A stretch of DNA of 64,000 bases from Bilabrum cf. latius (Eukaryota): contig OZ237742.1 in the NCBI GenBank assembly GCA_965178125.1, positions 124,001-188,000 on the forward strand. Reading direction: 5' to 3'. This document shows, one piece after another, positions 1 to 30,500 of this stretch. A program made the position numbers and the translations under genes. How positions within the stretch are numbered: the first letter of the stretch is position 1; each line of letters begins with the position of its first letter. The notes below the pieces were generated by a model. The model had not been told where the DNA came from, did no database searches, and saw only the letters and a program-made list of their open reading frames with translations.

Positions 1-3000
1 GCGGTGTCCCCTTGCCGCAGATTTTCAAAGGGTGCCGCATAGAGGTGGACGGCCGAACGCAACCGCCATTCTCTGAGCTGTAGCTGTTAGTGGGCGAGCG
101 AGGCGGTCGTGTCGTTCTCTACGGGGGTGGGAAAACAGATCTTACCCACTTGATTTGCGGCAGGCTCCCAGAGACGAAGCTTCGAGACTACGCCCGTAGC
201 CTGCGCAAGCTCCCGGTCGTGTCTGCAAGCTGGGTGGTGCAGTCGTGTAGAGAAGGCAGGTTGTTAGACCCGTGGGGTTTTGTCCTGCCTGCCTTGCGGC
301 GCGCAGCCCTGGGAGGCCCCCACTCGTCCTCGTCCTCGTCCGGGCCCGTCGGCAGCGGGGCACCCAGTCCCTTCCTGGCCAGCCTCTGGGGGAACAGCAG
401 CAATGTATCCAAGGGAGGACCCAGCCGTACCACTGCAGCACTGCGGCACGGGCAGACTATCGCTGTTCGTCCTGCCGCGCCCCAGCCCGACGGGCTTCCG
501 GAGGAGCGCCCGCAGTCGTTCACCGGCGGTGCCCCCCCTTCGCACTCGGGCAAGAGCAGCCGACAGGACCCTGACTTTGTCCGGAACTACTTCCGCAACT
601 CCAGGCTGCACTTCATAGGAGAGGCCAAGCAACACATGCAGCACCTCATCGTGCGCACGCTCAGGGCGCTGGGGGGGTAGGCAGGGCAGGGGATCGTGGC
701 CATGCGCACCGTGGGTCAGGGTCAGGGTCAGGGTCAGGGTCAGGGTCAGGGTCAGGGTCAGGGCCAGGGTCAGGGTCAGGGACGCGGGGGCAAGGGCGAG
801 GGCGGACCTGGCAAAGACGGGGGCGCGAGCGCCAGCGGCCAGGCATCTGCTGCATTGGGAGGCGCTGCGCATGGCAGCTCCACCGCTAGGTCCAGCACGA
901 AGCATAGCGGATCCTCGGCAGCGGCTGCCGACCGTAGCCGGTCCCGCAGGCGCGGCGAGCGGTGGATCGCGCACGTGGACATGGACTGTTTTTTTGCCTC
1001 TGTGGCTCTGCTGCGCCGCCCCGAGTTCAAGTCTAGGCCGGTGGCCGTGAGTCACGTGGTGGACGGCTCGGAGTATTCCACCACGCAGGCCAGCGGTGAG
1101 ATCTCTAGCTGCAACTACCTCGCGAGAGCAAACGGCGTGCGCGGAGGCATGTGGCTCAAAGAGGCGCGCCGGCTGTGCCCCGCGCTCGTGGTGCTGCCCT
1201 ACGATTTTGATCTCATCGCTAGGGTGGCAGCCCGGGTCGTGGCCCTGTTCTGCCGCACGGCTCGCGTGGTGGAAGCGGTCTCCGTTGACGAGGCCTACCT
1301 GGACCTGGGCTCTGACCCTGCCCCCGATGAGACGATCCGCAAACTGCGAGCTGCCATCGAGAGGCAGACGGGGTGCACTGCAAGCGCGGGGATCGCGCGC
1401 AATCGACTCCTGGCCAAGCTCGCCACCTCCAGAGGCAAGCCCAACGGCTAGTTCCTGCTGCCTGACGACGACTAGAATGTCCGCGCATTCCTACGGCCGT
1501 TGCCCGCCTCGATCGTCCCTGGCATCGGCTGGGCCACCGCCCGAGAGCTGGTCAAGCGAGGGGTCCACACCGTGGGCGACCTTCAGCGCATGGGAGCCAT
1601 GGGGCTGGCTGCCGCTATGGGGGGCGCGTCTGCAGCGGCTGGAGACCGGGCGGCAGCGTCTGCGGGAGGCAGTGGCGGCCGTCGCGCCGAGCAGCTGGTG
1701 CGTGCGGACGAACTGATCCGGCTGTCTCACGGCATCGATGACAGCACCGTGGAGCTGGTGCGGCCTCGGCAGAGCGTGAGCGCGCAGGTATTTTGGGGCG
1801 TCCGCTTCCTGCAGGACGAGGGCGAGCTAGCCGAGAAGGCCATGCGGGACATCGCCAGGGAGGTGGCGGGGAGGCTGCAGCGGTTCGGGCTGGAGGAGGC
1901 ATTCGCAGAGGGCGCGGTGGCGGAGGCAGATCTAGTGGGAATTCAACGCGGAGAGCGGGGTGCGGGAGCTCGTGCATCAGTCGACGAAAGTAGAAGTAAT
2001 ATGGGAAATACCGTAGATAGTAGTGGCAGGCATGGCACATCAGCGAGCGATGGGACCGGCGATCCGCGGGATGCAGTTGCTGTTTCCAGGAAGGGTGGCG
2101 GAGATGTGTCTGCATCGGCGACTGGCGCGCCTGCTGCTTCTTTGACAGGTATGTCTGGCAGCTTGGCGGCCTCATCCCAGAACAACTTCGAGCCGACCGA
2201 CAACACGGCTGCGCTTCTGCGCGCTGCGGTGGAGCTGCGGCCTGCCGATGACGCATCGCTGAGTGTGACCACCCTGCTGGATCCTTCCAAGCACAGCAAG
2301 GGCGAAGCACGGCCTGTGTAGGCCAGTGAAGACCCATTCGCCCACGTTCAGAACCCGGAAAGGTATTGTCTCGTGGGCAGGAGGGTCGGCGTGGTGGTCA
2401 AGCGGCGGCGCCCGAATGCGAAGCTGCCGTGGAAGAGTCTGGGGCACGGCGAATGCGAGGACTTTTCCAGAACCAAAGTGCTCCCGCAGCACACTGGAAG
2501 CGCGAGAAATATTGGGGAAGCGGCGGTGGAGCTATTACGGGGGCTGGGGTTCTCTCCCTTCGAGCTGCGGGGCCTGAGCGTGAAGGTGGAGGACTTGCGC
2601 CGACCGTGGAGGGAGAGGGAATGGGCCAAGGGGGGCGCACTGGCGAGACATTTCCAGAAAATGGAACGAATCAAGGGACAGGGCGGAGATCTTGGAAATG
2701 TAGGCGAACAAGGACCTGAGCCCGATTCAGAGGGAAGTAAGAGACGCAGTCCATGCATGGAGGTGGAACAGCACGGTGAGCCCACCAGCAGCCTTGCAGG
2801 CGGCGAGGGGCTCTAGCCTGGCAGAAGTGCGGTCGGTCGATGGGAGGGTGGCACGGTTGGGGGCAAGCGCGACCGCCGTAGCAATTTGGAAGATAGCAGC
2901 CCCATGGAGCTTGGGCAACGAGATTCCAAACGGAGGCGAAGAGATGTGGGCGGAAGGAGCGGCACTGCCAGTCCTAGCCCACCACTCCAAGATGGCACAG

Positions 3001-3892
3001 TGCCTCAGAAAGCTGTGTCTCCATCGCACGGAGCAGGCGCGCACCATGACCCCCTGCAGGAGTCCTCTGATGTGGTGGATCTGCTGGGCGATGATTCCGT
3101 GCTGCAGACACAGGACGTGGTCGATGGTGAGCCTCCAGCCGCACCCAAGGGTATAGGGTGTATTTTGCCTCCAAATTCACATGTGCGCGGTGACCAACCA
3201 GTCGAACAAGGTCGGAGACTTACAACTCGCCAGCGTGCATCGAATGCAGCTGGTGGGGGAATAGGCAGACCCAGCCGAAGAGGTATCTCGGGCCGGCACC
3301 GTACCGCCAATGTGACTGGCAGCGCCCCAAAAGGGCTGGGTGTGCAGTTCACGTTCAGTCAGTACGGTGCTGCGGCCATGGAGGCTGCAGCAGGCGTCCG
3401 CTCTGATGCACGCGGAAACGGCGATGCTGGCGCAGCAAGCAAGGGAGCTGATCATGATGCATCGCTCGGGTTGGGCAAGCTGGATCCAAGCATTGGTGTC
3501 GTGGATTTGGTCGATTGCTCGTAGCTGGCGAGCAGCCAAGACGCGACGGCGCGAGGAGATGCTAACCGTCCGGTTGCCCCAGCCCTGAAACCGGAGGACA
3601 TTGCAAATCGTCTGCGCGCCCAGCTGCAGGCCCGCCGCCGCGCCGCTCACGTAAAGTCAGGCTTCTCGCGGGCAGCCTTCCTGGGCAAGGAAGTCCTGGG
3701 TGTCGAGCCTGTGGAGGAGATTGGAAATGGGCAGGAGGGGGCTTCGGGGTATGGAGGCAGTGTGGGGGGTGGAATAGGAAGGGGGGCTCTGGAGAGCGGC
3801 ATGGCCGACCGGGGCAGGGGCATCGTTCGCGCACAGCACGGCCAGGTCGACCGACGGCCAGCTGCTGGGTCTGGACAGCAACTGAGGGGCCA

Positions 3893-3936
<44 letters not shown>

Positions 3937-4679
3937 CCGCTCATGGGTCCGGTAGCATGCCAACCTCCTCAAGCGGGACCTCAGGCTCGCTGCAACTGCC
4001 GGCGCCCCGCCGTTTCGGTGTCTCAGTGTCCCATGGCGTCGAGCTGCTGTCTTACATGCCAGGCATGGATCTGTCGTCGCATCTGCCTCCACTCACACCC
4101 ACCCGAGGCCAAGCATCGGTGTCCTCGGCCTCGCTCGGTGCCTCAGCTGGGATGGTCCAGTGGACCAGAGCACTAGTCTCCAGCCAAGGGCAAGGATCGT
4201 CTCAGGGGCATCGCGGGGAGGATGGGAATGCGGCTTATGACGGGTGCACTTCCACCGGTTGGCGCCTGCTCGTGCAGGACATCCACACCGCGTAGAGCTA
4301 GAGAGGGGAAGAGCCAGTTGCCGAAGGTTCTCATGAATGTGAAGCCAGCACGTTTGAATGGGATTTGGGAGGGGACTGGCGCCAGGTGCAGCGCAAGCTG
4401 CGCGCATGGAGGAGTGCTGCATGGGGCGACCATCGCTGGCCAGTGGGCCCCCCACCAGCTGATGCTAGCGCTGATCTCGTGTCCTTGGGGCTGGAGCTGG
4501 CTAGCTGCAGGCGAGACGCCGATGCGCGGGTCCTGTGCCGCATGCTGCTGCGTTGGGCGCAGGAAGTAGAGACTGTGAGTGCGACTACAACTGCGGGCGA
4601 GTGGGCTGTGCAATTTCGTCAAGCGGCAGAAGGCATCCAGAAGGAGGTGCAGCGCGTGCTGGGCCTGAGCCTAGTGTGA
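1..4679 (+). CDS. REV1: DNA repair protein REV1 (Y-family dCMP transferase), 5' partial; 9 in-frame TAG read as sense
   Basis: One frame (codons from base 3) to TGA 4677-4679. Contains BRCT (IFKGCRIEVDGRTQPP...THLIC...VVSASWVVQS), YFRNSRLHFIG, HVDMDCFFASV, EISSCNYLARANGV, EAVSVDEAYLD, TGCTASAGIARNRLLAKLAT and LGHGECEDFSRT. TAGs at 81, 678, 1449, 1473, 2319, 2814, 3522, 4293, 4299. Confidence 0.95.
714..781 (+). repeat. Coding hexamer microsatellite (GGTCAG)n encoding a Gly-Gln run in REV1
   Basis: About 11 tandem GGTCAG units visible, one of them the variant GGCCAG. Confidence 0.9.
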
Positions 4680-4691
4680 TGGATGACGCAC

Positions 4692-4832
4692 CCTGCTGAG
4701 CTCCACCCTACTGACCCATTTCCCCCTGGTGGGCGTTAGCATATACGTTGCCTCCGCCGCCCGCTGTCAGCACCCTGTCCTGCTGCCAGTTGTGGTCCAA
4801 CTCTGCCCTGCCGTTGGCGACCGCCGCCGTGC
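4692..4832 (-). mobile_element. Short diverged 3' remnant of the RLE-type non-LTR retrotransposon
   Basis: agctccaccctactgacccatttccccctggtgggcgttagcatatacgttgcctccgccgcccgctgtcagcaccctgtcctgctgcc aligns by eye with 15115-15203 and 46055-46143. Confidence 0.8.
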
Positions 4833-5105
4833 CAGTGGCAACTTGAAGGTTTCAAAGTTGTTCCGGTATGATTGCGCACGCGTGTAGAAAATCAAGATAC
4901 GTTCGTTCGTTCGTTCGTAGATCTAATTGCATTCAGTTGATCGCTTGCTAAAAATCCTAGGCGCTACAAGAACATTCCATGCATATGTAGTGGATACGCA
5001 GTCGACACTGCTGCACTGCTTGTCCGTGATATTGAGTACCTCTGAACTTAGCGCTGGGTAATTACGGAGGGAGCTCAAACGAACTTGCACCAAGTTGTAT
5101 TCGGT

Positions 5106-6743
5106 ATGAAGAGAGCATCGTTTGCTTCAGCCGCAATCATGCGTACCATAACACCGCATTCGTGCAAGTCTATGCCCTTCGGCAAGCAAGCACGCAAAGT
5201 TACCCTGGCTGCTATTGAAACATCTTGTGATGACAGCTGCGCTGCCGTTGTTCGTGGAAAAGCTTGGAGGCGACGAGACATCTTGAAAGCATCTGGCCCA
5301 CGTAGCCATCGACCTCTCGTTACGCTGCCGAGGCTCGAGACGCTGTGGTCCTACAGGGCATCGCAGCATCGGGAGCATGCTCCGTTCGGAGGAATCGTGC
5401 CAGCGGTCGCTGCAGAAATGCACGACAAGAACCTCCCAGTGGCAATATCAAAGCTAAAGGATTACATGGAATCCAATAGAATCGAGCTGGACGGCGTCGC
5501 GTACACCGCTGGGCCTGGCCTGGCCATGTCATTGCGCCGAGGGTACCAGGCCGCGCAGAGGCTCGCCAGCGAGCTCGACTGCCCGCTGCTGCCCGTGCAC
5601 CACCTCGAGGGCCACGTGCTTTCATGCGCACTGACTGCAGAGCAGAGCGATTCAGAGGCCGTGTAGCTGCCATTGGCATGCCTGGTCGCGAGCGGCGGGC
5701 ACACGAGCCTGGTGCTGTCCTCAGGCCCGGGGCAGTTCCAGGTGCTGGGGGAGACTCTGGACGACGCGCTGGGCGAGGCCTGGGACAAGGCCGCCAGGAT
5801 GTGCTATGCGCACGAGCATGCACAGCGGCTGTGGGAAGACAGAAACAAGGACAGGGACAAAGATGGGCACGGAGGCAGAGGCATGGGGGCCGTAGAGGTC
5901 TCCTCCGCCTCGGCTTCGAGGTCGACGAGGCCCGTCCACTACGGCGCCTGCCTCGAGTGGCTGGCCGGGGAGATGCAAGGGGACCCCGACGCCGTGTCTC
6001 TGCCTTTGCCCATGCGCAGCCCGCGGGTGCTGCAGCGGCAGGCGAGCACAGGTCGCTGGGACTTCAGCTTCGCAGGCCTCAAGACGGCGTTCGAACGGGC
6101 AGTCCTTGAGCGCGGCGGGGCTGAAGCGGCCCGCAGCGACGTGCGCCTGGCTGCCGACTTGGCTGCGTCGTTCCAGGCAGCTGCAGTGCGCCATGTGGTG
6201 ACCCAGCTGGATGGGGCTTTCGGCAGCATCGTCGCATAGTCAGAGCGGTGGGGTCGGCTGCAAGCGGCGGCTGCTGGAGGGAGGTCCCAGCCTCCCTCCC
6301 AAAGCAAGGCCGGGCACTTGACCGATTCAGATATGCAGGCGGGACCCGTGCAGCTTCCGGAACTGCTCGTGTGCGGCGGAGGTGCCGCTGCCAACACGGC
6401 GCTGCGTGCGGGCCTGGAGCAGGTTGCGACCAAGTTCGGCATGCGGGTGCTGTATCCGCCCCTGCAGCTGTGCACCGACAACGCCGAGATGATTGGGGCT
6501 GCAGCCGTCGCCCGCTTGGTGGACGGCGTGACACAAGCTGGGAAAGGTCGATCGATTGAGCGAGTTCCTCTCGAACACATAGATGAACGACTCGTGCTAG
6601 ATACAGCCAAGGACTAGCATGATGGTAGCTTGCTGTTTCTTGAGGGCGGAGCAGAGGCCGGGGCGGGGCCGTACACGCCACGATGGCCGCTCGGATAGCC
6701 TATGCCGGCCTACGGGCCCAGTGGCAAGTATCTGGTCGCGTGA
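5106..6743 (+). CDS. OSGEPL1: tRNA N6-threonylcarbamoyltransferase, TsaD/Qri7/OSGEPL1 type, probably mitochondrial; 4 in-frame TAG
   Basis: Motifs [72 protein letters not shown] and LCTDNAEMI. The family C-terminal PRWPL is reached only by reading through TAG 6615. Basic, Ser-rich N-terminal extension. TAGs at 5664, 6237, 6615, 6696; ends at TGA 6741. Confidence 0.93.
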
Positions 6744-7262
6744 TTGCATGCCAGTGGGAACCCAGCGGCAAGCGCAGTAGTAGAGCAGACGGTGCTGATT
6801 CAGCCTATCATGCCACCCGCTGGGCAGGTGCACCTTCGGGTCACCACCCACTGGTCGACTAGGATTCACAGTCCGCTGATTGACCAGACTCGGTTTCTTA
6901 AGACACAGAAGAAGCGGTAACTACTAGTGGAAGCGGAGGGCAGTGCTGCGGTATTGGGGCAGTCTAGTAGACTCTAGTGCCGGCGAGGACAACACAGGAA
7001 GGGGCATGAGCAGAGGCCGTGCAGGCTCCTTTCGACGTCGGGAGTGATGAAGGTAGAGTTGCATATTCAAGTCGATGCGATCTAGTGTCATTGCCTATGA
7101 AGATGATCCGATCCGATCCGATCCAGACTCGGAGCTGGAACAAGTGCATTGCCGCTAGGCCTATTTACAAAGAACTCCCCAACCCCACAGACTAGGAGTA
7201 CCAACCACTCGCATGGTCATGAATGGATGACCGTAATTGTTGGAGCGTGACTTGCTGCGAAC

Positions 7263-10200
7263 ATGCGGAGGGCCACTAAATCATGCATGCGTTACCTTCA
7301 TTGGTTTCGCTCTGGCGTTAGCGGAGTATATACGAAATGGAACGCGACTATGTATATGTGTGTGGTTGTTATACTAATATTTGTTGTGTGGACTGCGTGG
7401 GTGCAGCCAGGATACGAACGGGTTGATCGAAGTGCTCCCTCGCAGTTTCAGACCCTCTTGCGCCAGTGCTAGCTTGAGCTATCCAAAGGTGCAACCCTTC
7501 TAGCGGAGTTCAGAAACGAGATTATTAGTCCTACTTAGGAGTCGGGCTCCTTACGCGGCCGGCCTCAATTACCGCTGCTCGTGCATGTCTCATACGAAGC
7601 CCAGGGCGTTGCTTCCTTTGGGGGACTAGGAGCGGCTGTATCAAAAATGCTCGCTGGGCATGAGTCCGGAGCAGTGGTGCTGCTACCATATTTTGGGATG
7701 CTGAGAAACCATAGCTCTGCGGTGCAGCGCGAAAACCTCCGTCACTTATTTTCGCACAGAGTCGCCTGTGGGCTGCCCTCTGTACCGATCACAGAAATGT
7801 CGACCGACGCGGCAACAACACCACCGCTTGTTTCCACTTCGAACGTGATCAACGCATCGTTCGAATTTTGGGTCACCAGAGGTCCCGGCGATTCGCTGGC
7901 TGTGCTGGTGCAGCCGCCGTCTGAGCTAGACTATTTTGCGCAGGTGCGCAGCCGGCAGGACCTGTACCCAGTGCCAGGTCCAGAATCAGGTGCGGTGGCG
8001 CTCCGGGTGTTTGCGCAGGGGGCGGCGATTGCGCTGGCAGCCCTGTGTCCTGCCACCCCTGCGGCTGGAGGAGGTGTTGATGTTGATGTTGGCGGTGGTC
8101 CGTCGTGCCTGGGGGCGGTGTTTCACGGCGCGAACATGGGCCGGGCCTTGATTGCCGCGCGACAGCTGCCCGCAGATCCGAGGCAGGTGCTGTAGGTGTC
8201 ACCAGAGTTGCGCATGCTGTACTTCATCCACGACGGGCTCAGCGAGATCTCTCAGTTCCTCCTGGAGAGCGACCTCCAGGACAGGCTCGGAGCGGGGGCC
8301 GCACGCGCACTAGGCGCTGGTCCGGTGCCACCTGAGGAAGTGTGGTCCCCGCTGCGACTGGCAAAAGAATTACGGAGGGCGCCGCTGCCGGGTCTAGAGG
8401 CCATGGCAGTGGCCAGTACCCTGCACCACCGGACAGGGAACATCCTTGGCCTGACGGCCCTGGCTGCACTGCACGCAGACGCAGTGTCCCCCGTGTCCTC
8501 CTCTCTGGCCAGGGCCCTACTGCCTGGAGGGGAGGTCCTCAGCCTGGGCCACACATCGAGGGCTCTCCTCGCGATGCACAGGGCGGGCCGCCTGTGGGCG
8601 ATTGCACCGGCAGCTCCAGAGCCCGACCCTGCGCTTGGGCTGCCCTCGGTGGACCAGGGCAAGTTGGATCCAGAGGGGGCTGCCCAACGGCTGTGGGCTG
8701 CCAAGGCCAGGGCCAGGACAGAGCTGCTGGGTGAAGGCTTCAGCGGGGAGCTGGCACCTGCCGGCAGTGCGGAGGGTCGGCGGTTCGTGGTTCTGTTCGT
8801 GGGCCGCTTCGAGGCCAACAAGGGGGCTGCGATGGTGGTGCCAGTGGGGCGCGAGGTGTGCGAGCAGGGCGGGCACACGGTGGTGATGTCGACGGGCCCA
8901 CAGGACGAGGTAGGTCGGCGGGCGTGGGAAGATCTGCATGCGTGGCGGGAAGCATCGCCGTAGTGCGTGACGTTGGTGGGAGGTCGGGATCAGGTCCGGG
9001 GCCGTCTGGCGCGGGCTGCAGCTGACGTATGCGTGGTGCCATCGTGGCTGGAGGGATTCAGCACGGTTGCAGTGGAAGCTCTGCAGCATGGCTGCTTCCT
9101 TGTGGCCTCTGACACAGTTGGGCTGCGGGAGCACGTACAGCTGGGAAATGCTGGGGATGTAGTGAGTTGGCCCGCGAGCATGAGTGTGGATGCTCAAGCA
9201 TAGGCAGAAAATGCAGCGTATGTCGCTGGGCCGCGCTCTGGTTCTCTTGATCATAGTGTCGTATCAAGTTCAGGGCAGACACACCATGCCAGCAGTCCAC
9301 TGCAGATGTGGGAGAGCGCTCCGCGGCAGGCGCATGGGCTCCCGCCAGGGTGTGTCGACAGCAGTGCGGCCTCGTTTCGGCTGGACGCCTCCTCTAGGCT
9401 GCCTGCCCATCGCGAGGCGGCCCTGTCCTCGGCGCGGACTCGCGCGGCAGCAATGGCAGCTATGCTAGGCGGGGTGGAAAACTTGAGGCGATGTGGTGTG
9501 AGGGGTGCTAGCCGTGCGGCGGTCCGCTCGCTAGGTCGACTGCCGACCCCTCGCTCCGTTGCTCGGCGCATCGCTGACGCTCTCCATGGCAGATGGGCTC
9601 AGGACTAGGCCCCGGTGCGAGACGGTCGACTCGCGCGCATGCGACTGCTCGGCCACGTATTCGCGCCATTCTTGGCAGCCAGGCGTGTGGCACAGCTGCA
9701 CGTTAGCCTTGCGGCGCCCCATGTTCCAGATGCACCGCGGCAAGGCTTGCTGATTGGTAGGCTGCGGCAGGATCCAGGGGTGTTGCAGACACGGGGGGAT
9801 CGCGGCTTTGAGGTGATTCCACGCACTCGATCGCAAGAAGAAGCTGCTGTCGCGGCAGTTCGCTGGATCGGGATTCGCTCCCACATGCCTGCACGGCAAC
9901 CCAGCTCGACGATGCCATTCTACGGAGCCACGGTGGGGGTTCGGCTGCAAATCAGTGCCTGCAAGTACCTGGAGGCGAGAGGCCTTGAGGAGGGGGCGGG
10001 CCAGCACGTCCGTATCATGGCAGAACTCAGTGCCTTCGGGCACGGTGCCCTGCAAGGCCACGGCATCGAGCTACACCATGGTCCCGACCAGTGCTGCGGT
10101 CATCTATACGTCCTACTGGACCTGTCGCTTGCAATTCCGGACATGATTGAGTTAGTCCTGATCGTGCAGGCGCTGGACAATACAAGCTAGCAAGGTAGCA

Positions 10201-10325
10201 GTTCTGACCCTACCACAGACTTGGGGCCTGCAGCGACGGGTGGAATACGTGCGCCTTCAATCAACAGTGTTGGTATCTCTGTCAATGACATGGAGCTGTT
10301 GGCTGGCTTGATCAGTTCTCCATGA
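7263..10325 (+). CDS. Type II membrane GT-B glycosyltransferase, GT5 (glycogen/starch synthase)-like, copy A; 7 in-frame TAG
   Basis: N-terminal hydrophobic anchor (MCVVVILIFVVWTAWV), then HVSYEAQGVASFGGLG, LYFIHD, HADAVSPVS, LFVGRFEANKG and ADVCVVPSWLEGFSTVAVEALQHG. TAGs at 7470, 7536, 8193, 8961, 9201, 9606, 10188; ends at TGA 10323. Confidence 0.85.
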
Positions 10326-13122
10326 CGGCGTCCTCACAGCCTTTGGCGTTTTGGAGGCTAGCATACAGCGCCTGCAGGGCTATTCGTAAACTCGAAGGGG
10401 TGGGAGTGCATGTTCGTACCGAGTATGGGTACCGTTGCGGGTGACCTTTGCATGAGTGACGCACGATAGAAAGCATCCATTCAATAAGTTATGGACGGAG
10501 TGCAGGGCCCGACGGGCTGCATTTTTCGGACCTAGACCGGATCAACTTCCACCTGTACTTAGTACCGAACTAGGCCAGAAATACAGGTTAGGATACGTCC
10601 GAGGATCGATAACATCGGATCCGGATCAGATCCGGATTCTGTTCTGGATGCAGCGATCACTGGTTATAATAGAGAAATGTCTCGCTCAGCAAATTAAGCA
10701 CCGTCCGTCCACCTCATGCGTCCGTACGTGAGTCACTTTGGTGCGGTTTGGGGTAGGTCACGCTGGACGGCACTTCCCGGGTAGTCACAACTGCGTCTGA
10801 AATGACGAGAGTTGCCCCTTTTGTGCCCGTGAGCACGTCCACTCCGACCACGGCCCGGTCGTCAGTGACCCCTACGTCGAGCCGTGCCGCTATAGTCAGG
10901 TTGCCGCCGTAGCGTCGGCCCAGCAGACCTACCTCCTACCGCAGGACTGTCCCACCTCGAATGCTGACCCACAGCCGCAAATTTGCGCGAGACGTGGCAC
11001 TATCAAGCAGCCTCACGTCAATACGGGCCTCAACGAAACCCGTCGCATTGCCCAGGCAGACCAACTGCGCCACGCCGGGCCCAGACCGAATAGAATCGTC
11101 CTCTGAGAACTAGTCTACCACCACCGAGTGTCTTACAGAGCGGACTATCCCTCGTTCCAAATTCAGCGACTCGGCTGGACCAAGCTAGATCACCATGGCC
11201 GCCATGCCTGCTGGAGCCCCTTGCTCTTTGGGAGCTGTGGCCTGCCTACCAATGAACGCCGCCGTCACCTCTGGCGCACTGCTGGCCACCAACCTCATGT
11301 TTGTGGAACCGCACAGTGCCCGTCTGTCATTCAGCCGCCACAAGACCGGCACACGCCGTCCATCGAAGCCCAGGCGCTGGACCGCCGCAGAAGCAGTCCC
11401 AGCGAGAAAAAAGTCCGAGATGGCCTGCCGCAGCTTGTCCGGTCCTCTGCGACCGGGGGCTTCCTCCCGAGCATGTCGCCCATTCAATGCGTCACAAACC
11501 CTCCCGGCTGTACTCTGTGCTGTCGGCATCATCGTGGCGGCACGAATCGCATGCCGTGCCGCCACAGAGGGTCCGCACCTCCGCAGGTCTTGCACGCCTC
11601 GAAGGATGGACACGGCAGCCGACCGCGCCGTGCTGAAGGCCGCCATGGCGGCATGCATCTCCCCGGGCAAGCGACTACCCCGTCCATTCGCGATGGGAAA
11701 TGACCTAGCAAAGTGGAAAGGGCACTCGGTCGCATTCTGCGGCGGCCATACCACAGATGTGCCTAAACCACCCTGCTCTTCAGGCTGTAAGTTACTGAAC
11801 ATGTCTAGCTCTGGGTGGAGACGGAGCACTTTGCTCGGCACAATCCACCGCTTGCTTAAATTAGGGGCATCTACAGCCTGCGCGATGTCACCAACACCGG
11901 TTGTGTCGGAGGCCACAAGGAAGCAGCCGTGCTGCAGGGCCTCTGACGCGACCAACCCGTACCCTTCCAGCCACGATGGCACCAAGCATACGTCAGCTGC
12001 AGCCCGCGCCAGACGGCCCCGGACCTGATCCCGACCTCCCACCAACGTCACGCACTACGGCGATGCTTCCCGCCACGCATGCAGATCTTCCCACGCCCGC
12101 CGACCTACCTCGTCCTGTGGGCCCGTCGACATCACCACCGTGTGCCCGCCCTGCTCGCACACCTCGCGCCCCACTGGCACCACCATCGCAGCCCCCTTGT
12201 TGGCCTCGAAGCGGCCCACGAACAGAACCACGAACCGCCGACCCTCCGCACTGCCGGCAGGTGCCAGCTCCCCGCTGAAGCCCTCGCCCAGCAGCTCTGT
12301 CCTGGCCCTGGCCTTGGCAGCCCACAGCCGTTGGGCAGCCCCCTCTGGATCCAACTTGCCCTGGTCCACCGAGGGCAGCCCAAGCGCAGGGTCAGGCGCA
12401 GACGTGACGGGTGGAATGGCCCACAGGCGGCCCGCCCTGTGCATCGCGAGGAGAGCTCTGGAGGCAGACCCTGGGGCAAGCACCTCCCCTCCAGGCAGCA
12501 ACACCTTGCCCAGGGATGGCGACACCGCTGCGATTGCATCTGCATGCAGTGCAGCCAGGGCAGACATGGATAGTGCCACGGGGGAACCTACCATTTTTGC
12601 AGACAGGGCAAGGGCCTGCAGCCCGGGCAGAAGGTACCCCGCGGGAGACTCTGCAGTGTCCCGAGTATCAGGCGAGCGCGTGCTCTACCTTCCACCTTCC
12701 AGCGCAACGGCACCCCGCAGCTATTCGGCCCCGAGTCTTTCGATGACGTCAATTTCATTCAAGAACACGGAGATCTCGCTGAGCCCGTCGTGGATGAAGT
12801 ACAGCATGCGCAACTCTGGTGACACCTACAGCACCTGCCTCGGATCTGCGGGCAGCTGTCGCGCGGCAATCAAGGCCCGGCCCATGTTCGCGCCGTGAAA
12901 CACCGCCCCCAGGCACGACGGACCACCGCCAACATCAACACCAACACCTCCTCCAGCCGCAGGGGTGGCAGGACACAGGGCTGCCAGCGCAATCGCCGCC
13001 CCCTGCGCAAACACCCGGAGCGCCACCGCACCTGATTCTGGACCTGGCACTGGGTACAGGTCTTGCCGGCTGCGCACCTGCGCAAAATAGTCTAGCTCAG
13101 ACGGCGGCTGCACCAGCACAGC
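7899..13122. repeat. Large inverted repeat formed by the two GT paralogs
   Basis: Near-identical reverse-complement blocks at ~7899-8250 / ~12771-13122 and ~8625-9056 / ~11962-12393; symmetry centre near 10510. Confidence 0.9.
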
Positions 13123-13632
13123 TAGTGAGTTGCCGGGACCACTTCGCACGTAGAATTCATATGACAGCTTGCCGCCGAGCTCACTACCTACGCTGCTAAG
13201 CCCAGGAGTTCCGCAGGCTACATCATGGGAGAACCAGTGTAGCACTTTGTTCACGGCATCTGCCGAGGTATCATCCTTTCCCTATCGGATGTACCCAAAG
13301 GCTGGTAGAACTACTACTGCTGTGCCTGAATGACCAACAAGCATGGATTCGACAGCTCCACCAAGGCCGCCAAAGGAAGCCAACGGTCGCACTTCGTAAG
13401 AAATATGGACAACACGTTGTAGCGCTGATACTCCCTTGACGCCAACAGCCTATGCAAGGCTGTTGAGGCTGCTTGCGCTCCGTTCCAAGTCATGGACGCA
13501 TGCATTCAAATAGCCGCTCTCGTCCGTATGATGCGTAGCACTGCTGGTAGAAACTATACCTTGTACATACAAAACAAGTCCTGCAATCATGAATACTGCC
13601 AGTAGCGTGCACAGCCTTGGTGACTTCTTCAT
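10714..13632 (-). CDS. Type II membrane GT5-like glycosyltransferase, copy B (inverted paralog of copy A); 9 in-frame TAG
   Basis: Anchor LCTLLAVFMIAGLVLYV, then HISYEVRPLASFGGLG, LFVGRFEANKG and PSWLEGYGLVASEALQHG. TAGs at 13450, 13282, 12826, 12721, 12685, 12055, 11185, 11110, 10936; ends at TGA 10714-10716. An alternative start at ATG 13767 is possible. Confidence 0.83.
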
Positions 13633-14153
13633 GTCCCCAATTCCTTGTGCACTGCAAACAGTGGACTTTTGGCGAGTGTTGCCTGTATGCTTCACACGCT
13701 TTGATGCTATATTTGACCAACCGTTCCGGTGATATGAAGCAGCATGCAGAATTGGCTGTCTCAGCATCAAAACGTCGTATACGGAAAGATGGAGCTGCGG
13801 CTGCACAAGGCACAAGCAGCTGCGAGCACGGGCCCCGGAGGCGCGCTACCCACTGTATGTGGCGCGTGCTGCAGGTAGACGATGCCTGCAGCTTGTTTCT
13901 GCGTCTTGGTACTGCTTGCTACGTAGTGTACACTGTGCTGCTTCCCTCGACGAACGCGGTTCCGTCGGAAGGTTCTCAGCTGAACTCCGAAATCGCCGAT
14001 TGGGCCCTCCTTGCGGGGCCCTTTACAAAGTAAAAGTAGGTATGTTTGAGTATTTTATGACGTGTATGAATAAATACATGGTTTTATATTATGCATACAT
14101 GGTCTAATCTTGCCAAAAACATCTAGAAGGCGAGATATATGGGCCCAAAGAGA

Positions 14154-16125: not shown

Positions 16126-16293
16126 TAAAATAACATTACTTTTTTGTAACGCGTATTTTGAAAGCTGAAATCGTAATTGAACGATGATAGACTTCGCGTG
16201 ACGAGGCCCAAATAGATTGCAAGGTACAGAGTATTCGCTGGAGTGAACCCAACAACTTGCATAAGTCATAGGTTTGCTCTGCTCGAAAGATCA

Positions 16294-19200
16294 ATGGTAT
16301 TCTCGCGTCAAAAGAAATAGAACTTACCGGCAAGGAATGCTGCATGTAGGTGCCCCGGCATTCCTGCCTGGCTCTACCATGCATATTATCGACTAAGATA
16401 TCGAAAAGACGAAGTTTTCAGGTATCTCTTCATAACTATAGCCATATTCGTTGTTGCCCTCGGAGTTCTCATGTATGCAAGGTTGACAGATCCTTCTACC
16501 CAAACCGTCTCGCCGAGACCAGAAACCGCTGGGCACAGCATGGTGATTCCCGAGGATACATGCATGGTACTGATGGATCGTGTTGATCGATAGACTATGG
16601 CGGTGGGCAGCTCTCCGGAACGCCACACACCGGCTGTTTCTGTGTCTGGCTTCACCGTCATTACTCAGGTGTATGGCCGCGTTTCTGTTCCAGAGCTTCA
16701 AGATTTTCTAGACGCGTACTCTTATATTGGAGGTGTTGATTCAGTCGTAATCGTGTGGAACAGATTGGACGTGCAAGTGCCACAAGCGGGGAAGCTTCGG
16801 TCTGGGGTTCCAGTGCGAATTGTTCGGATGCGGACGAACAGTATGAATAACAGGTTCTTGGTGGCTGATCACATACGAACTGACGCTGTCTTATTGGCTG
16901 ACGACGATCTCAGGATACCGGCAGCAGACGTACGCAATCTGTACTCTGTCTGGCGTGACAATCAGAACCGGCTGGTCGGTTTCCTGCCCCGGTCCTACTT
17001 CTTGGGGGGCGAAAGCAAGCACCCGTACTATAACTACCAAGTCCACAAGGATGGATCTTACTCTATTATCCTGGTGGGGGCGTCCATGTTCCACAGGCGG
17101 TTCATGGAAATGTATGCCTCTCCGGAGCTGGCCCCCGTGCGGGAGCACATCGACGAAGTGTTCAACTGCGACGACATCGCCATGAACATGATCGTGGCGA
17201 TGGAAACGAGGCTGCCACCCCTGCAGGTCAGCGGGCACGTTGACTCGTTGATGAGCACGGAGCACAGCGGCCTCAGCGAGCAGGTGAACTGGGGCGCCCA
17301 GAGGGCTGCGTGCCTGGGCAGCCTCATCGACATCCTTGGCGAGAACCCCCTGCTTGACACCAGGATGAGGGTGCAGCCCGCGGAGGAAATCGTCGCGGTG
17401 CAGGACTCGCGGCGGACGTCAGACGGGGTGCGGAGTGGGGTGGGGTATGGGGTGGATTTGCTGGCAGCAGCAGCAGCATCGCCAGCGCCAGCACCAGCAC
17501 CGGGTGCTGCTGCGGCGGCGGCAGAAGACCTAATCGACGATGGGAGCAAGGCTGAGGACGAGTCGGCCGCCTTGCCATCCTCCGGTCCTGCGGCTCTGCC
17601 AGACAGAAGAGTCACGGGCGTGATCGTGTCCTTCCGTCGGCGTGCCAATATCCGGGCCATCGTGTGCGAGGCCATCCGGGACTATGCTCCCCTGCTGGCC
17701 GAGTTCATCGTGGTGAACAATGACGTGGAGCGGCCCATGGAAAGGGACGCGGAGAAGGAGATGGACTGCGCGAGCTGGGAAGCGGAGCAGAAGTAGGCCA
17801 ATGGTGCTGGTGGCGTGCCAGGCGACGCCGGCAAGGCCGATGCACTCGCCAGTGCAGAGGCTCGATCCATCTTCGGTACCAAGCAAGTGCCCATTCGAGT
17901 GATAGACAACGCTTAGAACTCGTTCACAATGGCCAGATACACGGGGTGCAGAGAGGCGCGGACAGAGCTGTGCTTCGTGGTGGACGACGACTTCAGGCCA
18001 AAGCACCTGCGGGCGCTGGTCTCGGCGTTCTCCAAGCATCCAGGCCGGGTAGTGGTGGCTACAGACGTGTCTTCTGCCCATCTCAACTCCCGGTGGACGT
18101 TCTTTGAGCCGCACAGGCGACTGCACGCCGGGTTCGCCTGGCTGGGCACTGGCGCGCTGCTGCCGCGGGAGCAGGTGCTGCGTTTCCTGGCTACGATTGA
18201 GAGGATTGGGGCCACCCCGGAGATGCAGCGATTCGCGGACCTGTACTTCACACTGCTGCTGAACTAGGTGCCGCTATCCCTGCAGACTGCGTTGGTGCAG
18301 CAGGGGCTGGACACGGGCGGCGCCTTCTCATGCGCAGACTGCAAGGACCACCGCAAGCAGAACTCGGACCACCAGCTGGCGGCCTTGAAGATCCTCCGCA
18401 GGTGCCTTGACTCGCAGGCTCAGCTGGGCGCGGCATTGTGGGACACCAGTCCGGATGGGAGCGAAACGTCTGGCCCGAGGCGCGGGGTTCGTGGGTCGAA
18501 GGCCCTCTCGATGGATGGGGCTGCGAGCCCGTTCGACTGCAGGATCGAGGAGCTGTACACCACTCGAGACTGGGCAGAGGTCGTCTTCAAGGCTGTGCTG
18601 CCGGGGGACGAGGGGCTGTTCCTGTCCTCGGTGGACCCGCAGGTGGCAGCCTCAAGGAACGGATCCCACTGGGACGCAGCCTTTCCCAAGGGCTGGGCCG
18701 TACCCTCCCACGAGATACAGTTCGTGAGCGCCGTGGACGGCAAGATGGCGACGGGCCTCCGCGTGTCGCACGCCGCCATGGAAGCGCAGAGACACCCGAT
18801 TTTTGGAGTGCAGCTGGCGGAAGGGGTGGCTCTGGGCGGGATGTTAGTCAGCGGTAAAGGTTCCATGGATGCGATCCGCGGAGCCAGGCTGCAGGTGTCG
18901 ACCGACGGGGCCGTGTTCGAGGACGTCCCGTCTCTCGCAAGCAGCGGCTGCGAAGAGCTCAAGACCGCTGCGTGTGAGGCAGTGGCACGCGCTGCCGAGC
19001 CGCTGCACCTCGAGACCATCGTGGTGGTGCCTGTGCAGCCCGTCGCTGGCAGCGTGGTGACAGCGAGGCTGGTGCTTGACGTGCAACCGATCACGTCAGA
19101 CTTGAAGGGCGAGTCGGCAGGTGACCTCTTTCTCCACGAAGTGAGGATGCTGCGGCCACCGAGCTCCGTGATCACGCCTAGAGTGCTGGTTGTGAGCACC

Positions 19201-21384
19201 TCACCGGCACGCACGTTCGGGGACTTGCTGGACTGCCCCATGGCTGAGCTGGCCCAGCTGCTGGCATCGAAGGGGGGACAGGAAGTGGCTATGCTGCACG
19301 CAAGCGACAAGCGGCTGGACGGGGTGGGGCACAGACAGGCTCAGCACTTCCTTGCGAAACACGGAGTGCGGCTGCACCTGCTGGGCGAGGCCTTGGACGG
19401 AGACGAGGGCACCAAGCGGTACAGGCGAGCACCTGACACTTCTTTCTCTCAGCTGGAGCTTGCCTTTGCGCGCTGGCTAAGAGTTGAGGAGGGCAGGTAC
19501 GGCACCGTGCACTTCGACGTGCACAAGACGCCCGTCGCACTGGCGATTCGCATGCGAGAGGTGGGCGTGGCCCATGGCTCCACTGCCTTCATCGGGCATG
19601 TCTCCACCACGGTCACGGACAGAACAGAGGCTGGCGCTCGATTTATCGATTCTCAGGAAGAGCTGGTGGCAGCTGTGGCTGAGCGAGCGAGTGCGAGGGG
19701 AGCGGACCTGATCGTGCACCCGACGCAGCACAGCGCGGCCCGCTCGGGGGACAGTCTGGGACAGGCCAGCGCTGCTACATAGATAGTGCTGCGGCCCCCG
19801 GTGCACAGCTTTGGCGGCGGCCGGGCGCAGGTATCTGTCGATGAGACTGGCACGGGCAGTTCCATTCCGTCCAGTGTGCAGCTCATGGTGGCCGAGACGA
19901 GAAGCACCACGCCGCAGCGGGTGCGGGACGTGGTGGCGGCGTTTTCGTGGGCAGCCCGCGAGATGGCAAGCGAGGGCGAGGGCCCGGTTTCCAAGCGATC
20001 GCCCGTCATCAGCCGGCTCGTCGTCGTGGGCGGGCGCACAGTGCCCCTCGTACGGAGCCTCTTGGGCCTCAACGATCTGCTGCAGGCACCAGACGACGCA
20101 GTGACAGACGGTGAGCAGACGATCGCGATTCCTCAAGACCATCCCCTGGCACCGCTGGTGGCAGTCGTTGAGTTCGTGCAGACGGCCAGCCACGTGAGGG
20201 CAGCGGACATCGTGGAGATGCTGGCGCCCAGCCACCTCTTCGTGGCGATGCCCAGCAAGGGAGAAGGCGCGTGGCTGACGCAGGCGCTTCTGGACGCGGG
20301 CGCCAATGTGGCCCTCCCGCAGTCTCTGGCAGAGCTGCTCCCGCCTGCGGCCAGGGGAGAGTGCGCCTACACGACCGTCCGGAGCGCGGGGCTGGGGACT
20401 GTGCTGCGGAACGCGGCGCATCTTGTGCGGTCGAAGCGGTGCTCCGGCAGCGCCAAGGACTCGGAGTCGGCGGCCGATGCTTTCGTCCGTCTGGACTCGC
20501 AGCTGGGGGCCAGGAGCGCGGGCCCGGGGCGCGTGGCTCCTCTAGCCCTACCTCGCCGCTCGCCGACCGACGTCCTGCCGCTCGTGTCGATCTGTGTGGC
20601 GCACAAGGACGCTGGGGAGCAGCTGCTGCTGTCGGTCCGCTCCGCTGCCGCTTAGAGCTACCCCTCGATCGAGATCGTGGTGATGGACGGGCTGTCGGAT
20701 CCAAGCGAGCAGGGCACGTTTGCTGACGTAGATCGATTGGCGGCGAGTCGGGGCGGGTTGCGTATGCTGTCGCGGGAGTGGGCGGGGCCGTCGGATGCCA
20801 AGAACTTCGCGGCCCAGCGGTCGAAGGGGCAGCTGCTCTACTTTCTCGAGCCCGGGGTGGAGCTGGCACCAGCTGCGATCGAACGGATGGTGGCTCTCCT
20901 GCTGCGGGAGCGCGCTGATGTGGTGGTGTCCTGGCTCACAGAGTACCGGAACCTTGACGAGACGGCGGTGGGCAAGCAGGACGACGCGGAGGAGTGGACG
21001 GTTGCCCTTGCGGGCGCCGAGCCACCCCTGGAAAGGCTGGCAGAGGTATTCGGGCCCGGGGCTGGGCTGATTCGCCGCAGCTGCTTCACCAAGATCGGCG
21101 GCTACCAGATGCTAGGCAATGGCTTCGAGTTTGGCCTCTCGTTCGTGGAGGACCACTCGCCGGGGGCAGCGCTCTTCTTAAGGGCGCACGCACTGGGGTT
21201 CGCGGTCAGAGTGCTGCCTGAAGTGGCCTACACGCAGCCCGTCCCGACGGCGGCGGCCACGACACCGGGTCTAGAGCATCAGCGGGATGCCCTCCTTGCG
21301 TCTGCAGCAATGAGCTCAATGGGTTGGCAGGAGCGGATCTTGCTGGAGTACACGCTCGGTCGACAGTCCAAGCTCGTGGGATGA
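16294..21384 (+). CDS. Multidomain Golgi-type glycosyltransferase (~1696 aa): TM anchor, GT64/EXTL domain, second GT-A domain, degenerate GT-B-like region, C-terminal GT2-like domain; 7 in-frame TAG
   Basis: The anchor FRYLFITIAIFVVALGVLMYA is in frame only across TAG 16591. GT64 motifs VIVWN, NSMNNRF, TDAVLLADDD, RLVGFLPR, YSIILVGASMFH, NCDDIAMN and QRAACL. Second domain MARYTGC...CFVVDDD...GFAWLGTGA. GT2 domain PLVSICVAH...SAAA[TAG]SYPSIEIVVMDG. TAGs at 16318, 16591, 17794, 17914, 18265, 19780, 20653; ends at TGA 21382. Confidence 0.88.
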
Positions 21385-26448: not shown

Positions 26449-26492
<44 letters not shown>

Positions 26493-27231: not shown

Positions 27232-27275
27232 GGGGGGGGGGGGGGGGGGGGGTAGGGGGGGGTTAAAGGGGGTGG
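27232..27275 (+). repeat. Poly-G tracts (G21, G8, G5) with G-quadruplex potential, in a divergent intergenic region
   Basis: G21-TA-G8-TTAAA-G5-TGG, directly visible. Confidence 0.8.
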
Positions 27276-27555
27276 ATATCGGACCCTGAGCGCGCGAATA
27301 CTCGCCGCCACACACAGAAAACCAGGCCCGGCACTGGAAGCGCGGCTGCCCGACTCAGCCTGAGGCTGCCAGTGGCTTCAGCTTGCAATCAGTCTCCGGT
27401 GCTTCCATTGCAGCCTGAGCGAGCAAACAAGGGGCGCCTTTGACATTGTGTCAATATGCACGTCTGGCCCAGGGACTATCTGCGATTGCCAGCGGACGTG
27501 CGACCTTACTGCGCGACCTCGTGCCTCTGCCGGTGTGTGACGACAGAATCAACGG

Positions 27556-30500
27556 ATGAAGCATCATCAACCTTCGTATTCCCGACAACAGCTAATCATG
27601 GCATCATCTCCGAGCTCTAGGGGGGGTAGTCCAAGCCATGGAGCTGGCGAGAGCCCAGGAGCTAGGGTAAAGCCTCGAACTGGGGATGTTGCGGCACGGG
27701 GTGCGGCAGCAAAACTGAAAGCAGAGTCGAAACGGAAGGAGATTGCAGACATGATGCGGCTTCACCGCGCGTCACGCGCAGCCCAAGCTGGCGACTGCTA
27801 GTTGCTTTCAGACCTGATTTCGGAGCAAGCCTCCATCGTAGCATCGTAGGATTTCCAAGGGCGTACACTCGTGCACTTAGCCGCGGCAGCGGGTCAAGGC
27901 GATGCGATTCGGCTTTTGGCTGCGCAAGGAGCCGATATGGACGCAAGAGACAATGATGGTATGGCACCACTCCACATCGCAGCGATCAATGCCCAGGTAG
28001 GCGCTGCAGCGGCGCTGCTAGAGCAACGTGCCGATCCCCTAGCAGTTGATACCACTGGTGCGCCTGCCGGCGTAAGCCGAATGAGCTCTCGTGTTTCGTC
28101 CAGGAGCGCGAATTAGACTATCTCCAGTAATGATCACTTCGGTGGCAAGCGTGCAATTTTCTACGCCTTCAGAGCCGGGTGTCCAGGGCTTGTAGAAATC
28201 CTTCGAAGAGCTACAGCCAGCAATGCAGGAGCTGCCAAAAAGAAGCACACTGGTGCTGCGCCCGATGAAGGTTCTCCCTCCAAAGCCAAGGGAAAGCAAG
28301 AGACCAAGCTTGCAAACGACGTGGATCCTCGCGAGGACGATCCTGGCATGGAAGGCCTCGACGACCAGGCGCGAGGTCTCTTCCGCCTGCCCGTGGAGAT
28401 GCTGGACGACGCAGCCCGCCGGGCAGCAGACGCTGAAGAGGAAGCGGCTCGAAGCGAGTCGAAACTGCGTGATCAGGCGGCTGCAAAACAAGTCGCCGCG
28501 GCGGTGGGCGAGGTGGAGTCGAAGGAGGCCGAGACCGGCGAGGGGCACGAGGCGAGCATCGAGCAAGTGCTCGAGGCGCAGACTGGCAGTGAAGAGGACA
28601 GCAAGCCCTCTGGTTCAGCGACCAGTGACCTGCCAGAAAAGCCAGACCAGGGCACATCTGCACAATCCCCTGCACCACCATTGGCAGCAGCACCCGCGCA
28701 AGGCACGCAGTCAGGCACTGCCACTGCCACTGCCACTGCCACTGGTGGTGTATCCAGGGCCGCCCCGCCGCCGCCCGTGCCGCACCCGCCCCCCGGCACG
28801 TATGCGTCCCCCCTCCGCGTGCAGTTCGAGCTCCCGGGTGGTGACCCGGACTCTGTCGTCTTCGCCTCAGCGTGTCCGCACGAGCCCGCTGCGTGCGGGA
28901 GGGTGGTGACCCGCGAGCAGCCCCTTGTGCTGGTGGACCCCTCCAGCGAGGACGGAATGAGCGGCGCTGACCTGGCAGCCGCGGATGCGTGGCTCGTGGC
29001 CCGTCTGGGTGGGGGCAAGGGTGCCAAAGGGGGCAGTGCAAGACAGGACCTCTACGACGACATGGTGGCCATGGGATCCTCGGCCCAGGGGAAAGGGGCG
29101 GGGACAGGGGCAGGGGGCGGGCTCAAGACGGCGAGAGAGCGCGAGGCCGAGGCCCGCGCCGACCGTGTATCCCAGGCTCGCGCTGCGCTTGCGACCATAT
29201 CCAAGGACAGGCGGGTGCCGGCCGCGGCCATGGAGGTCGCTGGGCTGGACGCGCACTGGGACGCTCTGGAGGCGGTGGCAGACCCGGGCATACCCCTGAG
29301 GAACACAATGGCGCGAGTGGAGGCCCTGCGGCAGAGGTTTCGCGCGGGGCCCCAGCCACCCCCCGAGCCGGCGGTGCTGGAGGACGGCAATCCGACGACT
29401 GCAGAGCGCAGGAGGCGGCTGGAGTTGCAGCGGCAGGCACGCACCAGCGAGACCGCGTCCGGTGGGGCTGTAGGGTCTGGGGCCCGCATGCAGGCGCAGG
29501 CATCCGCGGCTGATGCGGTAGTGCGCGGTCGCAAGCTCGGGTCTGCCGGTGTTCCCCAGGGAGACATGATTCTGGATGGGCCGCGGTCGAACCCCGCCTC
29601 TGCAGTGGCGGAGGATGTGGCGAATGAGCGCGCCGCTCTCGTGGCGGAGGGTGCGCTGAGAGTGGCACAGCAACAGCAGCACAAGAAGAATAAACATGAG
29701 GGGGGCGAGGGGGGCTCGGAGCATCGCGAGCAGGGATCCAGCAGCAGGCAGCGCGTGCTGGGCGGGGGCGAGCAGGGACTGGACCCTGTGGAGCAAGCAG
29801 AGGAGCGGGTGGCCGGAGACGGGGTGCCTGTGAAGCGAGGCACCACGCGATTTGTTAGAGCCACGGTGCGCTCGCCGGACGGACGGTGGAGCGACGTGGT
29901 GACCCTTCGGTACCGCCTACTGTCTCCGCTGGAACAGTTCTTTGACGCGTCACCCAAGGCGCTGTGGTCGGCCGAGGGCAGGCTCGTGGCCTTCGGGCTG
30001 ACGTCACTGCGGAGACTCATGTCTGCGGACAGGGGCCTCCTCCGGCGCGCGTTCTCCCGGATCGGCATCCTGCAGCGACAGAGCGAGGCGCTGATCCAGG
30101 CTCTCAAGCGGGAGTGGAGGAAGCGGCAGCTCAAGGAGAGGGAGGAGCAGGGGGCGGCGTACGTCTCCCCGAGGGCACCGGCGCGGCAGCAGCCCGGCGA
30201 CAGGGAGAGCCCCGCGGGGACCACGAGCACGCGGGGGCGGGGGAAGGGCACGCGCGACGGAGCAGTCAGTCCAATGGGGGTGGCGGTCGGTGCGGGGGCC
30301 AGTGGCAGTGGCAGGGGCAGGGGGCCGGCACAGCCGCATTCGATGGGCCACGGGGAGGACCCTGGGGAGCCATCGGTGGTGCTGATCGGGTCCACTGCAG
30401 ATGCACACGTCCTGGGGAACAACAGCGCCGTGGACGGAGTGCACAGCCGACTGCAGGAGGGCTCCATGGAGGACTCGGAGATGCGTGCCCTCGCAATCGA

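Follow-up and report, generated by a model that had tools for sequence, protein, structure and literature searches.

Genes of the window and their TAG codons

We analysed a stretch of 64,000 nucleotides of Bilabrum cf. latius (assembly GCA_965178125.1, contig OZ237742.1, forward-strand positions 124,001 to 188,000), hereafter the window, with respect to the meaning of the codon TAG, which occurs in frame in its long open reading frames (ORFs). The content of guanine plus cytosine (G+C) is 61%, and a Pfam search of the translations shows that the long frames encode eukaryotic proteins. At the left edge lies a REV1-like gene with BRCT and Y-family polymerase domains (3-4679, forward strand); its 5' end is open at the window edge, it ends in TGA, and it carries nine in-frame TAG codons. 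Its product matches the Pfam family IMS (2.2e-40), as well as the structures of human REV1 and of E. coli Pol IV. The TsaD/Qri7-like gene (5046-6743, forward; Pfam TsaD, 7.5e-58) also ends in TGA; its open frame has TAG at residues 207, 398, 524, and 551, and once more at residue 2, probably upstream of the start. Two paralogous genes for GT4-type glycosyltransferases are located at 7251-10325 (forward) and 10714-14022 (reverse).

Three further TAG-containing genes, all ending in TGA, encode a glycosyltransferase with Glyco_transf_64 (GT64) and Glycos_transf_2 (GT2) domains (16177-21384, forward; eight TAG codons in the open frame), an ankyrin-repeat protein (Ank; 27556-30945, forward; six), and a ubiquitin hydrolase (UCH; 39306-45155, reverse; thirteen in the open frame). 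A PAN-domain protein and an SGT1/Ecdysoneless protein are also among the long frames identified by Pfam. A giant ORF of 4,863 codons (49197-63788, forward), to which no Pfam family was assigned, ends in TAA and contains 63 in-frame TAG codons, or 1.30% of its codons. The recognisable genes are all uninterrupted ORFs separated by short spacers, and their homology is explained without introns; such an arrangement is unusual in a GC-rich eukaryote.

An earlier note on this DNA, made from the letters alone, had proposed glutamine as the TAG residue from four codons in conserved motifs. On re-reading the sequence, all four are found where it placed them and in the peptide contexts it gave: GKPNG[TAG]FLL in REV1 (1449-1451), AV[TAG] in TsaD (5664-5666), VRSAAA[TAG]SYPSIEIVVMDG in the GT2 domain (20653-20655), and VAS[TAG] in the ankyrin gene (27847-27849). 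The gene families named for these sites are likewise recovered by Pfam, as IMS/BRCT, TsaD, Glyco_transf_64 with Glycos_transf_2, and Ank, respectively.

TAG as a sense codon, TAA and TGA as stops

Thirteen long ORFs, comprising 17,189 codons, contain 128 in-frame TAG codons (0.74%) and no TAA or TGA, a zero that follows in part from the definition of an ORF. The contrast greatly exceeds what chance would produce. With the standard stops, the longest ORF has 967 codons. Reading through TAG yields ORFs of 4,897, 1,949, 1,735, and 1,558 codons, and reading TAA as well makes them hardly longer (4,968, 1,949, 1,740, and 1,558). If TAA had the same meaning as TAG, 40-49 in-frame TAA codons would be expected from the proportion of A to G at the third position in the codons CAR, GAR, or AAR (R, A or G). 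As that many TAA codons would have broken the frames and none is seen, TAG alone is a sense codon.

Among 18 non-overlapping ORFs chosen for the analysis of terminators, TGA ends 15 and TAA ends three; with a sample of this size, TAG may still act as an occasional stop. Homology runs in frame across TAG in REV1, TsaD, GT2, and UCH; the C-termini of REV1 and UCH, at TGA codons of the window, match the ends of protein fragments of a close relative (see below); and the C-terminal PRWPL motif of TsaD, present also in bacterial TsaD, lies downstream of TAG 524. As judged from the nucleotide sequence and its alignments, TAG is a sense codon in the window.

These data also bear on the possibility that the standard code holds and that TAG is edited by U-to-C changes to CAG, falls in tiny introns, or marks pseudogenes or assembly errors. 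We consider this highly improbable, the least likely of the alternatives weighed here. The contrast between 128 TAG codons in 13 ORFs and the complete lack of TAA and TGA, together with the in-frame continuation of homology across TAG, argues against it, and pseudogenes would accumulate all three stop codons. Contigs from four independent sequencing runs were aligned to positions 1-11,800 of the window; some of their pieces span several TAG sites and match it letter for letter (0 differences), hence an assembly error confined to a single data set does not explain these codons. Runs tentatively marked as RNA were left out of the evidence. At five of these TAG codons a fragment of the close relative also stops, and the DNA of a distant relative has in-frame TAG as well. 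In the variant with RNA editing, conversion of UAG to CAG would also yield Gln and would mimic every protein-level result. Nuclear U-to-C editing on such a scale is not known, and the variant is ruled out by this implausibility only.

Residues of a close relative at the TAG sites

The proteins of the close relative are fragments from Logan assemblies, 79-96% identical to the window proteins and about 88% identical overall; their appearance is that of genes split by gene prediction with the standard code. Ten of them were aligned, corresponding to TsaD (P0002, 87% identical), REV1 (P0122-P0125 and P0127), and UCH (P0134-P0137), with 2,565 residue pairs outside TAG codons. Seven TAG sites of the window fall inside these fragments, and the relative has Gln at four of them: residue 226 (678-680; P0122) and residue 1174 (3522-3524; P0123) of REV1, the second TAG of a TAG-AGC-TAG string in the same protein (residues 1431 and 1433, 4293-4301; P0123), and residue 1879 of UCH (39519-39521, reverse strand; P0135). 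The first TAG of the string corresponds to Gly, TsaD residue 207 (5664-5666) corresponds to Glu in P0002, in a variable column, and TsaD residue 398 (6237-6239) to Ser; the REV1 and TsaD sites are all on the forward strand.

At five further sites the fragments end exactly at the TAG codon of the window. These are, on the forward strand, REV1 residues 483, directly after KPNG (1449-1451; P0122), 773 (2319-2321; P0124 and P0125, which lie on two relative-derived contigs), and 938 (2814-2816; P0127) and, on the reverse strand, UCH residues 815 (42711-42713; P0134) and 340 (44136-44138; P0137). Thus, single TAG sites are matched by stops in the relative, even inside a polymerase motif, and the relative has a stop codon, presumably TAG, at all five.

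The seven residues inside the fragments were scored under each candidate amino acid with an empirical substitution matrix built from the same alignments. The log10 likelihood is highest for Gln (-6.59), followed by Glu (-11.92), Arg (-12.56), Lys (-13.57), Ser (-14.74), Tyr (-18.19), and Leu (-18.72). With standard matrices, the lead of Gln over Glu is 3.8 log10 units for PAM30, 2.9 for BLOSUM80, 2.1 for PAM70, and 1.6 for BLOSUM62, that is, 1.6 to 5.3 over all matrices, and Glu is always second. Glutamate is the main rival of glutamine, and its second place in every likelihood test speaks for it; we regard it as very unlikely, as the relative has Gln at four of the seven sites and Glu at one.

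Slightly less probable than Glu is that TAG encodes another residue (Leu, Ser, Tyr, Lys, or Trp) or a mixture produced by near-cognate transfer RNAs (tRNAs). The single sites with Ser and Gly in the relative would suit this, as would one fragment that ends at a TTG codon of the window; however, the likelihoods of Leu, Tyr, Ser, and Lys given above are all far below that of Gln. A mixture would be compatible with all the tests made here, but a TAG inside the polymerase motif that is still a stop in the fragment of the relative argues for accurate decoding.

At the nucleotide level, run X9 represents the relative, with about 90-93% identity to the window over the longer pieces listed; among the 40 differing positions listed out of 847, none falls on a TAG codon. 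X9 covers the first GT4 gene, whereas three of the last four depth bins (10245-11800, with the 3' part of the second GT4 gene) are empty. Scans with the REV1 fragment P0122 for further close relatives revealed none in genome contigs, where all 80 loci kept have bacterial titles and matches confined to the polymerase domain, or in viral contigs, where two loci match the polymerase domain at 35-36%.

Conserved protein columns

For the conserved domains we used a logic similar to that of Codetta: short domain segments were translated with each candidate residue at TAG and the Pfam bit scores compared, for Gln, Glu, Leu, and Tyr in eight segments and for Lys, Ser, Trp, Arg, and X in five. Summed over segments of TsaD, Glyco_trans_1_4, Glycos_transf_2, Ank_2, and SGT1, with six TAG codons together, the scores are 396.7 bits for Gln, 393.3 for Glu, 392.6 for Lys, 391.9 for Arg, 390.8 for Ser, 387.7 for X, 386.0 for Tyr, 383.7 for Leu, and 383.4 for Trp. 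Gln thus exceeds Glu by 3.4 bits and Leu by 13.0. Lys, Arg, and Ser, within 4.1-5.9 bits of Gln, leave some room for another polar residue; still, the deficits relative to Gln are 4.1 bits for Lys and 5.9 for Ser, and 10.7, 13.0, and 13.3 for Tyr, Leu, and Trp.

The GT2 TAG (20653-20655, forward; PF00535) lies in the motif ..AAA[TAG]SYPSIEIVV.., and its column scores 51.8 bits with Gln against 48.1-49.0 with Glu, Leu, Tyr, Lys, Ser, Trp, Arg, or X (48.3 with Glu) and is Gln in heparosan synthase B (8vh7). The ankyrin TAG (27847-27849, forward), which precedes D-x-x-G-x-T, shows a polar preference only: Ank_2 gives 53.3 bits with Glu, 52.7 with Gln, 52.1 with Lys and with Ser, 51.5 with Arg, 49.8 with Tyr and with Trp, and 49.2 with Leu, so that Glu is here slightly better than Gln.

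The Pfam IMS model stops just short of covering the TAG after KPNG in REV1, and the column of this codon was, therefore, tabulated in 146 representatives of REV1-like clusters. Gln is found in 76 of them (52%), followed by Val (13), Ala (9), Leu (9), Ile (8), Ser (7), Met (4), His (4), Thr (3), Arg (3), Glu (2), and others (8); the position is also Gln in the structures of human REV1 and E. coli DinB. In log-odds, the column yields +3.7 bits for Gln, -0.6 for Leu, and -2.1 for Glu. Glu, present in two of the 146, is thus 5.8 bits behind Gln, while Val, Ala, Leu, or Ile, present in 39, is what an assignment to some other residue could invoke. Residue 491 of REV1, also TAG, was dropped as an informative site, its column being gapped in 69 of the 146 homologues and otherwise variable. 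The column of TsaD TAG 207 has Glu in 31 of 119 homologues, Ala in 21, Gln in 13, Pro in 12, Asp in nine, and Thr in seven; here Glu is both the commonest residue and that of the orthologue, in agreement with a TAG codon for Glu.

The earlier note had called the REV1 and GT2 columns strongly conserved for Gln. Both have Gln in the majority and neither is invariant, so the wording was partly overstated. Its description of the other columns as polar rather than Leu or Tyr holds for the ankyrin site, and the TsaD column is variable. Its proposal of Gln itself is borne out in every quantitative test, be it orthologue likelihoods, Pfam sums, or the REV1 column; when TAG columns were checked for an excess of Leu, Glu, Tyr, or Lys, Gln was ahead of them all in the Pfam sums and at the orthologue sites.

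Paralogues and repeats

Within the window, TAG codons can be compared between the two GT4 genes and between copies of a dispersed repeat. The GT4 genes are convergent and share inverted blocks of 431 nucleotides (93% identity) and 665 nucleotides (90%), at 7863-9116 and 11902-13158; two TAG codons are common to both copies. The repeat, labelled a retroelement in the earlier note and at most a putative one, as its open frame has no Pfam match, is present in two long copies (15097-16120 and 46037-47059; 92-96% identical) and as a fragment of about 136 nucleotides at 4690-4825 on the reverse strand, which is 81-83% identical to 15106-15241 and 46052-46176.

In total, 13 paralogous pairs involve TAG, ten from the GT4 genes and three from repeat copies, and four of these are TAG/TAG. 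The unequal pairs, in which TAG faces GAG three times, GAA once, and CAG never, point to Glu. Two Glu-codon pairs are in a well-aligned context (repeat 253/118 and GT4 786/854); a rough estimate from matrix scores puts their weight on the side of Glu at about 1.5-2 log10 units. Most of the pairs are in poorly aligned stretches, and we count them as contrary evidence that is not decisive. The lead of Gln is 1.6-5.3 log10 units at the orthologous sites, about 1.0 in Pfam (the 3.4 bits above), and about 1.75 in the REV1 column (5.8 bits); summed, it exceeds the advantage that Glu gains from the paralogues. Moreover, the exchange of Gln and Glu is common and conservative, so that the Glu pairs fit Gln as well; the non-Gln residues of the orthologues would do so, too, if TAG is preferentially at less constrained sites. 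Even so, these data maintain Glu as the main rival.

One codon of the repeat had been cited in the earlier note as a TAG/CAG swap, consistent with Gln and weak. The letters at 4708-4710 are CTA on the forward strand, i.e., TAG on the reverse strand, and when the three copies are aligned, both others (15100-15245 and 46046-46180) indeed have CAG at this codon. The fragment is located in the spacer between REV1 and TsaD and is probably not coding, so the swap is weak evidence, as that note had said.

A distant relative in metagenomes

A metagenome scan with TsaD produced 41 loci, of which contig L001 (1,628 nucleotides, 55% G+C) is the closest; its TsaD is 53% identical to that of the close relative, while the other 40 loci are at 28-50%. 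We read L001 as belonging to a eukaryotic relative. It has nine in-frame TAG codons within a stretch of 506 codons lacking TAA and TGA. Two of them are at TsaD columns occupied by Gln in 119 of 119 and in 112 of 119 bacterial homologues, respectively (with Glu in four of 119 in the second), a pattern that stands against Glu; at two more, both the window and P0002 carry Gln; and the columns of the remaining five are variable or gapped. These alignments are strong evidence that TAG would be read as Gln in the organism of L001. If the code change is shared by descent, this supports Gln for the window, too. L001 opens (positions 1-110) with a short tandem repeat, recognisable by peptide strings that recur in each of the three frames.

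Assignment of TAG and proposed mechanism

Several observations weigh against glutamine. Gln leads Glu, Lys, and Arg in the Pfam sums owing to the GT2 column and to no other; what the remaining five separate is polar from hydrophobic residues. The REV1 column is 48% non-Gln, with Val or Leu in five bacterial DinB-like matches. The close relative has residues other than Gln (Glu, Ser, and Gly) at three of seven sites, compared with 83% conservation of ordinary Gln codons; it is known from proteins alone, so that its stops are assumed to be TAG, and its fragment P0136 ends where the window reads TTG (Leu). The nine unequal paralogous pairs are GAG (three), GAA (one), GCC (three), GTC (one), and AAC (one), with no CAG, and the lack of TAA and TGA in frame is, as said above, partly circular. 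In addition, the sample is small, consisting of seven orthologue sites, six Pfam-scored TAG codons, and one REV1 column.

Taking both sides together, we consider it very probable that in the window TAG encodes glutamine and that TAA and TGA are the stops, as in NCBI table 15. This would probably be a new lineage for an already known code. UAG would be an ordinary sense codon for glutamine, in genes that end mostly in UGA, or else in UAA, and that appear to have few or no introns in nuclear DNA of 61% G+C. By analogy with other reassignments of UAG, it may be decoded by a dedicated tRNA-Gln with the anticodon CUA, and eRF1 would no longer recognise UAG, retaining UAA and UGA. As synonymous codons, TAG and CAG could interconvert by C/T transitions, which would account for Gln in the relative and for a faster turnover of TAG sites. 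In the 64-kilobase (kb) window, ARAGORN detects no tRNA genes, and no Rfam families are found there either; the gene for eRF1 lies elsewhere in the genome.

In-frame stops or TAG codons are observed at two levels of relatedness, namely, in proteins about 88% identical to those of the window and in a TsaD about 53% identical. The chances are about even that an old change of UAG to Gln, in which UAA and UGA stayed as stops, is common to a whole clade of eukaryotes that are rich in G+C, poor in introns, and possibly allied to the green algae.

Composition and other features of the window

The giant ORF (49197-63788) differs from the rest of the window. Its TAG rate is about twice that of the remaining genes, and its ratio of TAG to CAG is 0.60, compared with 0.16 for the other 12 ORFs. 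Its G+C content is 0.55, compared with 0.59-0.67 elsewhere, and that at third codon positions (GC3) is 0.53. In the C-terminal part of the product, a stretch rich in Cys precedes several hydrophobic segments. Coincident with this ORF, the G+C content drops beyond 48 kb from about 0.63 to about 0.55 (within 44001-64000), and the low-G+C region could be a compositionally distinct region of the chromosome.

A TAG-free ORF of 537 codons at 33551-35164 (reverse) encodes a TMEM135-like membrane protein, whose nearest protein-atlas clusters occur most often in Chlorophyta and Streptophyta, an observation to be taken as a lead only. Antisense to it runs a forward frame with eight TAG codons (33732-35438); it has no family and an unusual composition, with more G+C at second than at first codon positions (GC2 > GC1), and is probably not a gene.

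Relation to known codes and significance

Codes of the table 15 type, with UAG for Gln and UAA and UGA as stops, are reported for Iotanema spirale (PMC5304391) and for Hartmannula sinica, Trochilia petrani, and Protocruzia tuzeti (PMC11687900). The window resembles these systems in that its in-frame TAG codons align with Gln and that TAA and TGA stay outside the frames and end genes. The organisms concerned are an anaerobic metamonad and ciliates, whereas the window has 61% G+C and gene-sized uninterrupted ORFs; and the main terminator of the window is UGA (15 of 18 ORFs), whereas UAA is reported as primary in I. spirale (PMC5304391).

In codes of the table 6 type, both UAR codons (UAA and UAG) stand for Gln; UAG then has the same meaning as here, but TAA is a sense codon, unlike in the window (0 in frame against 40-49 expected). 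Such codes are found in many ciliates and in some ulvophycean green algae. This type was rejected for the window, as TAA does not occur in frame and reading it leaves the genes unlengthened. A UAR code for Gln is also reported for hexamitin diplomonads (PMC5304391).

UAG alone is reported to be reassigned, with UAA still a stop as in the window, in three further cases. It means Leu in the rhizarian exLh (PMC5304391) and in phyllopharyngean metagenome-assembled genomes from TARA (PMC11687900), and Ser in the green alga Scotinosphaera (PMC11687900). Both Leu and Ser fit the window data much worse than Gln, and the exLh-type assignment of Leu was rejected at 13.0 Pfam bits below Gln and a log10 likelihood of -18.72 against -6.59. 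UAG codes for Glu in an uncultured oligohymenophorean ciliate and in peritrich ciliates. The same meaning is reported for Blastocrithidia.

Nuclear codes in which UAG and UAA differ in meaning are represented by few cases. The 2017 paper that first reported such differing meanings gave two (PMC5304391), and several ciliates and one green alga were added later (PMC11687900). Our literature search, with partial coverage, found no description of a change of UAG alone to Gln in a GC-rich, alga-like organism, and one may have been published. If the code is indeed shared by a clade of such organisms, they would be the second non-ciliate lineage with it after Iotanema, and one that offers contigs of 64 kb or more in which to study its tRNA and eRF1.

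In practical terms, annotation of this genome or of its relatives with the standard code fragments most genes, and table 15 should replace it; the Logan and ENA proteins matched here are such standard-code gene pieces. An additional lineage whose related species retain TAG at the same codons would provide a comparative system for how eRF1 drops UAG while keeping UAA, and would help to trace the spread of a new Gln codon among genes.

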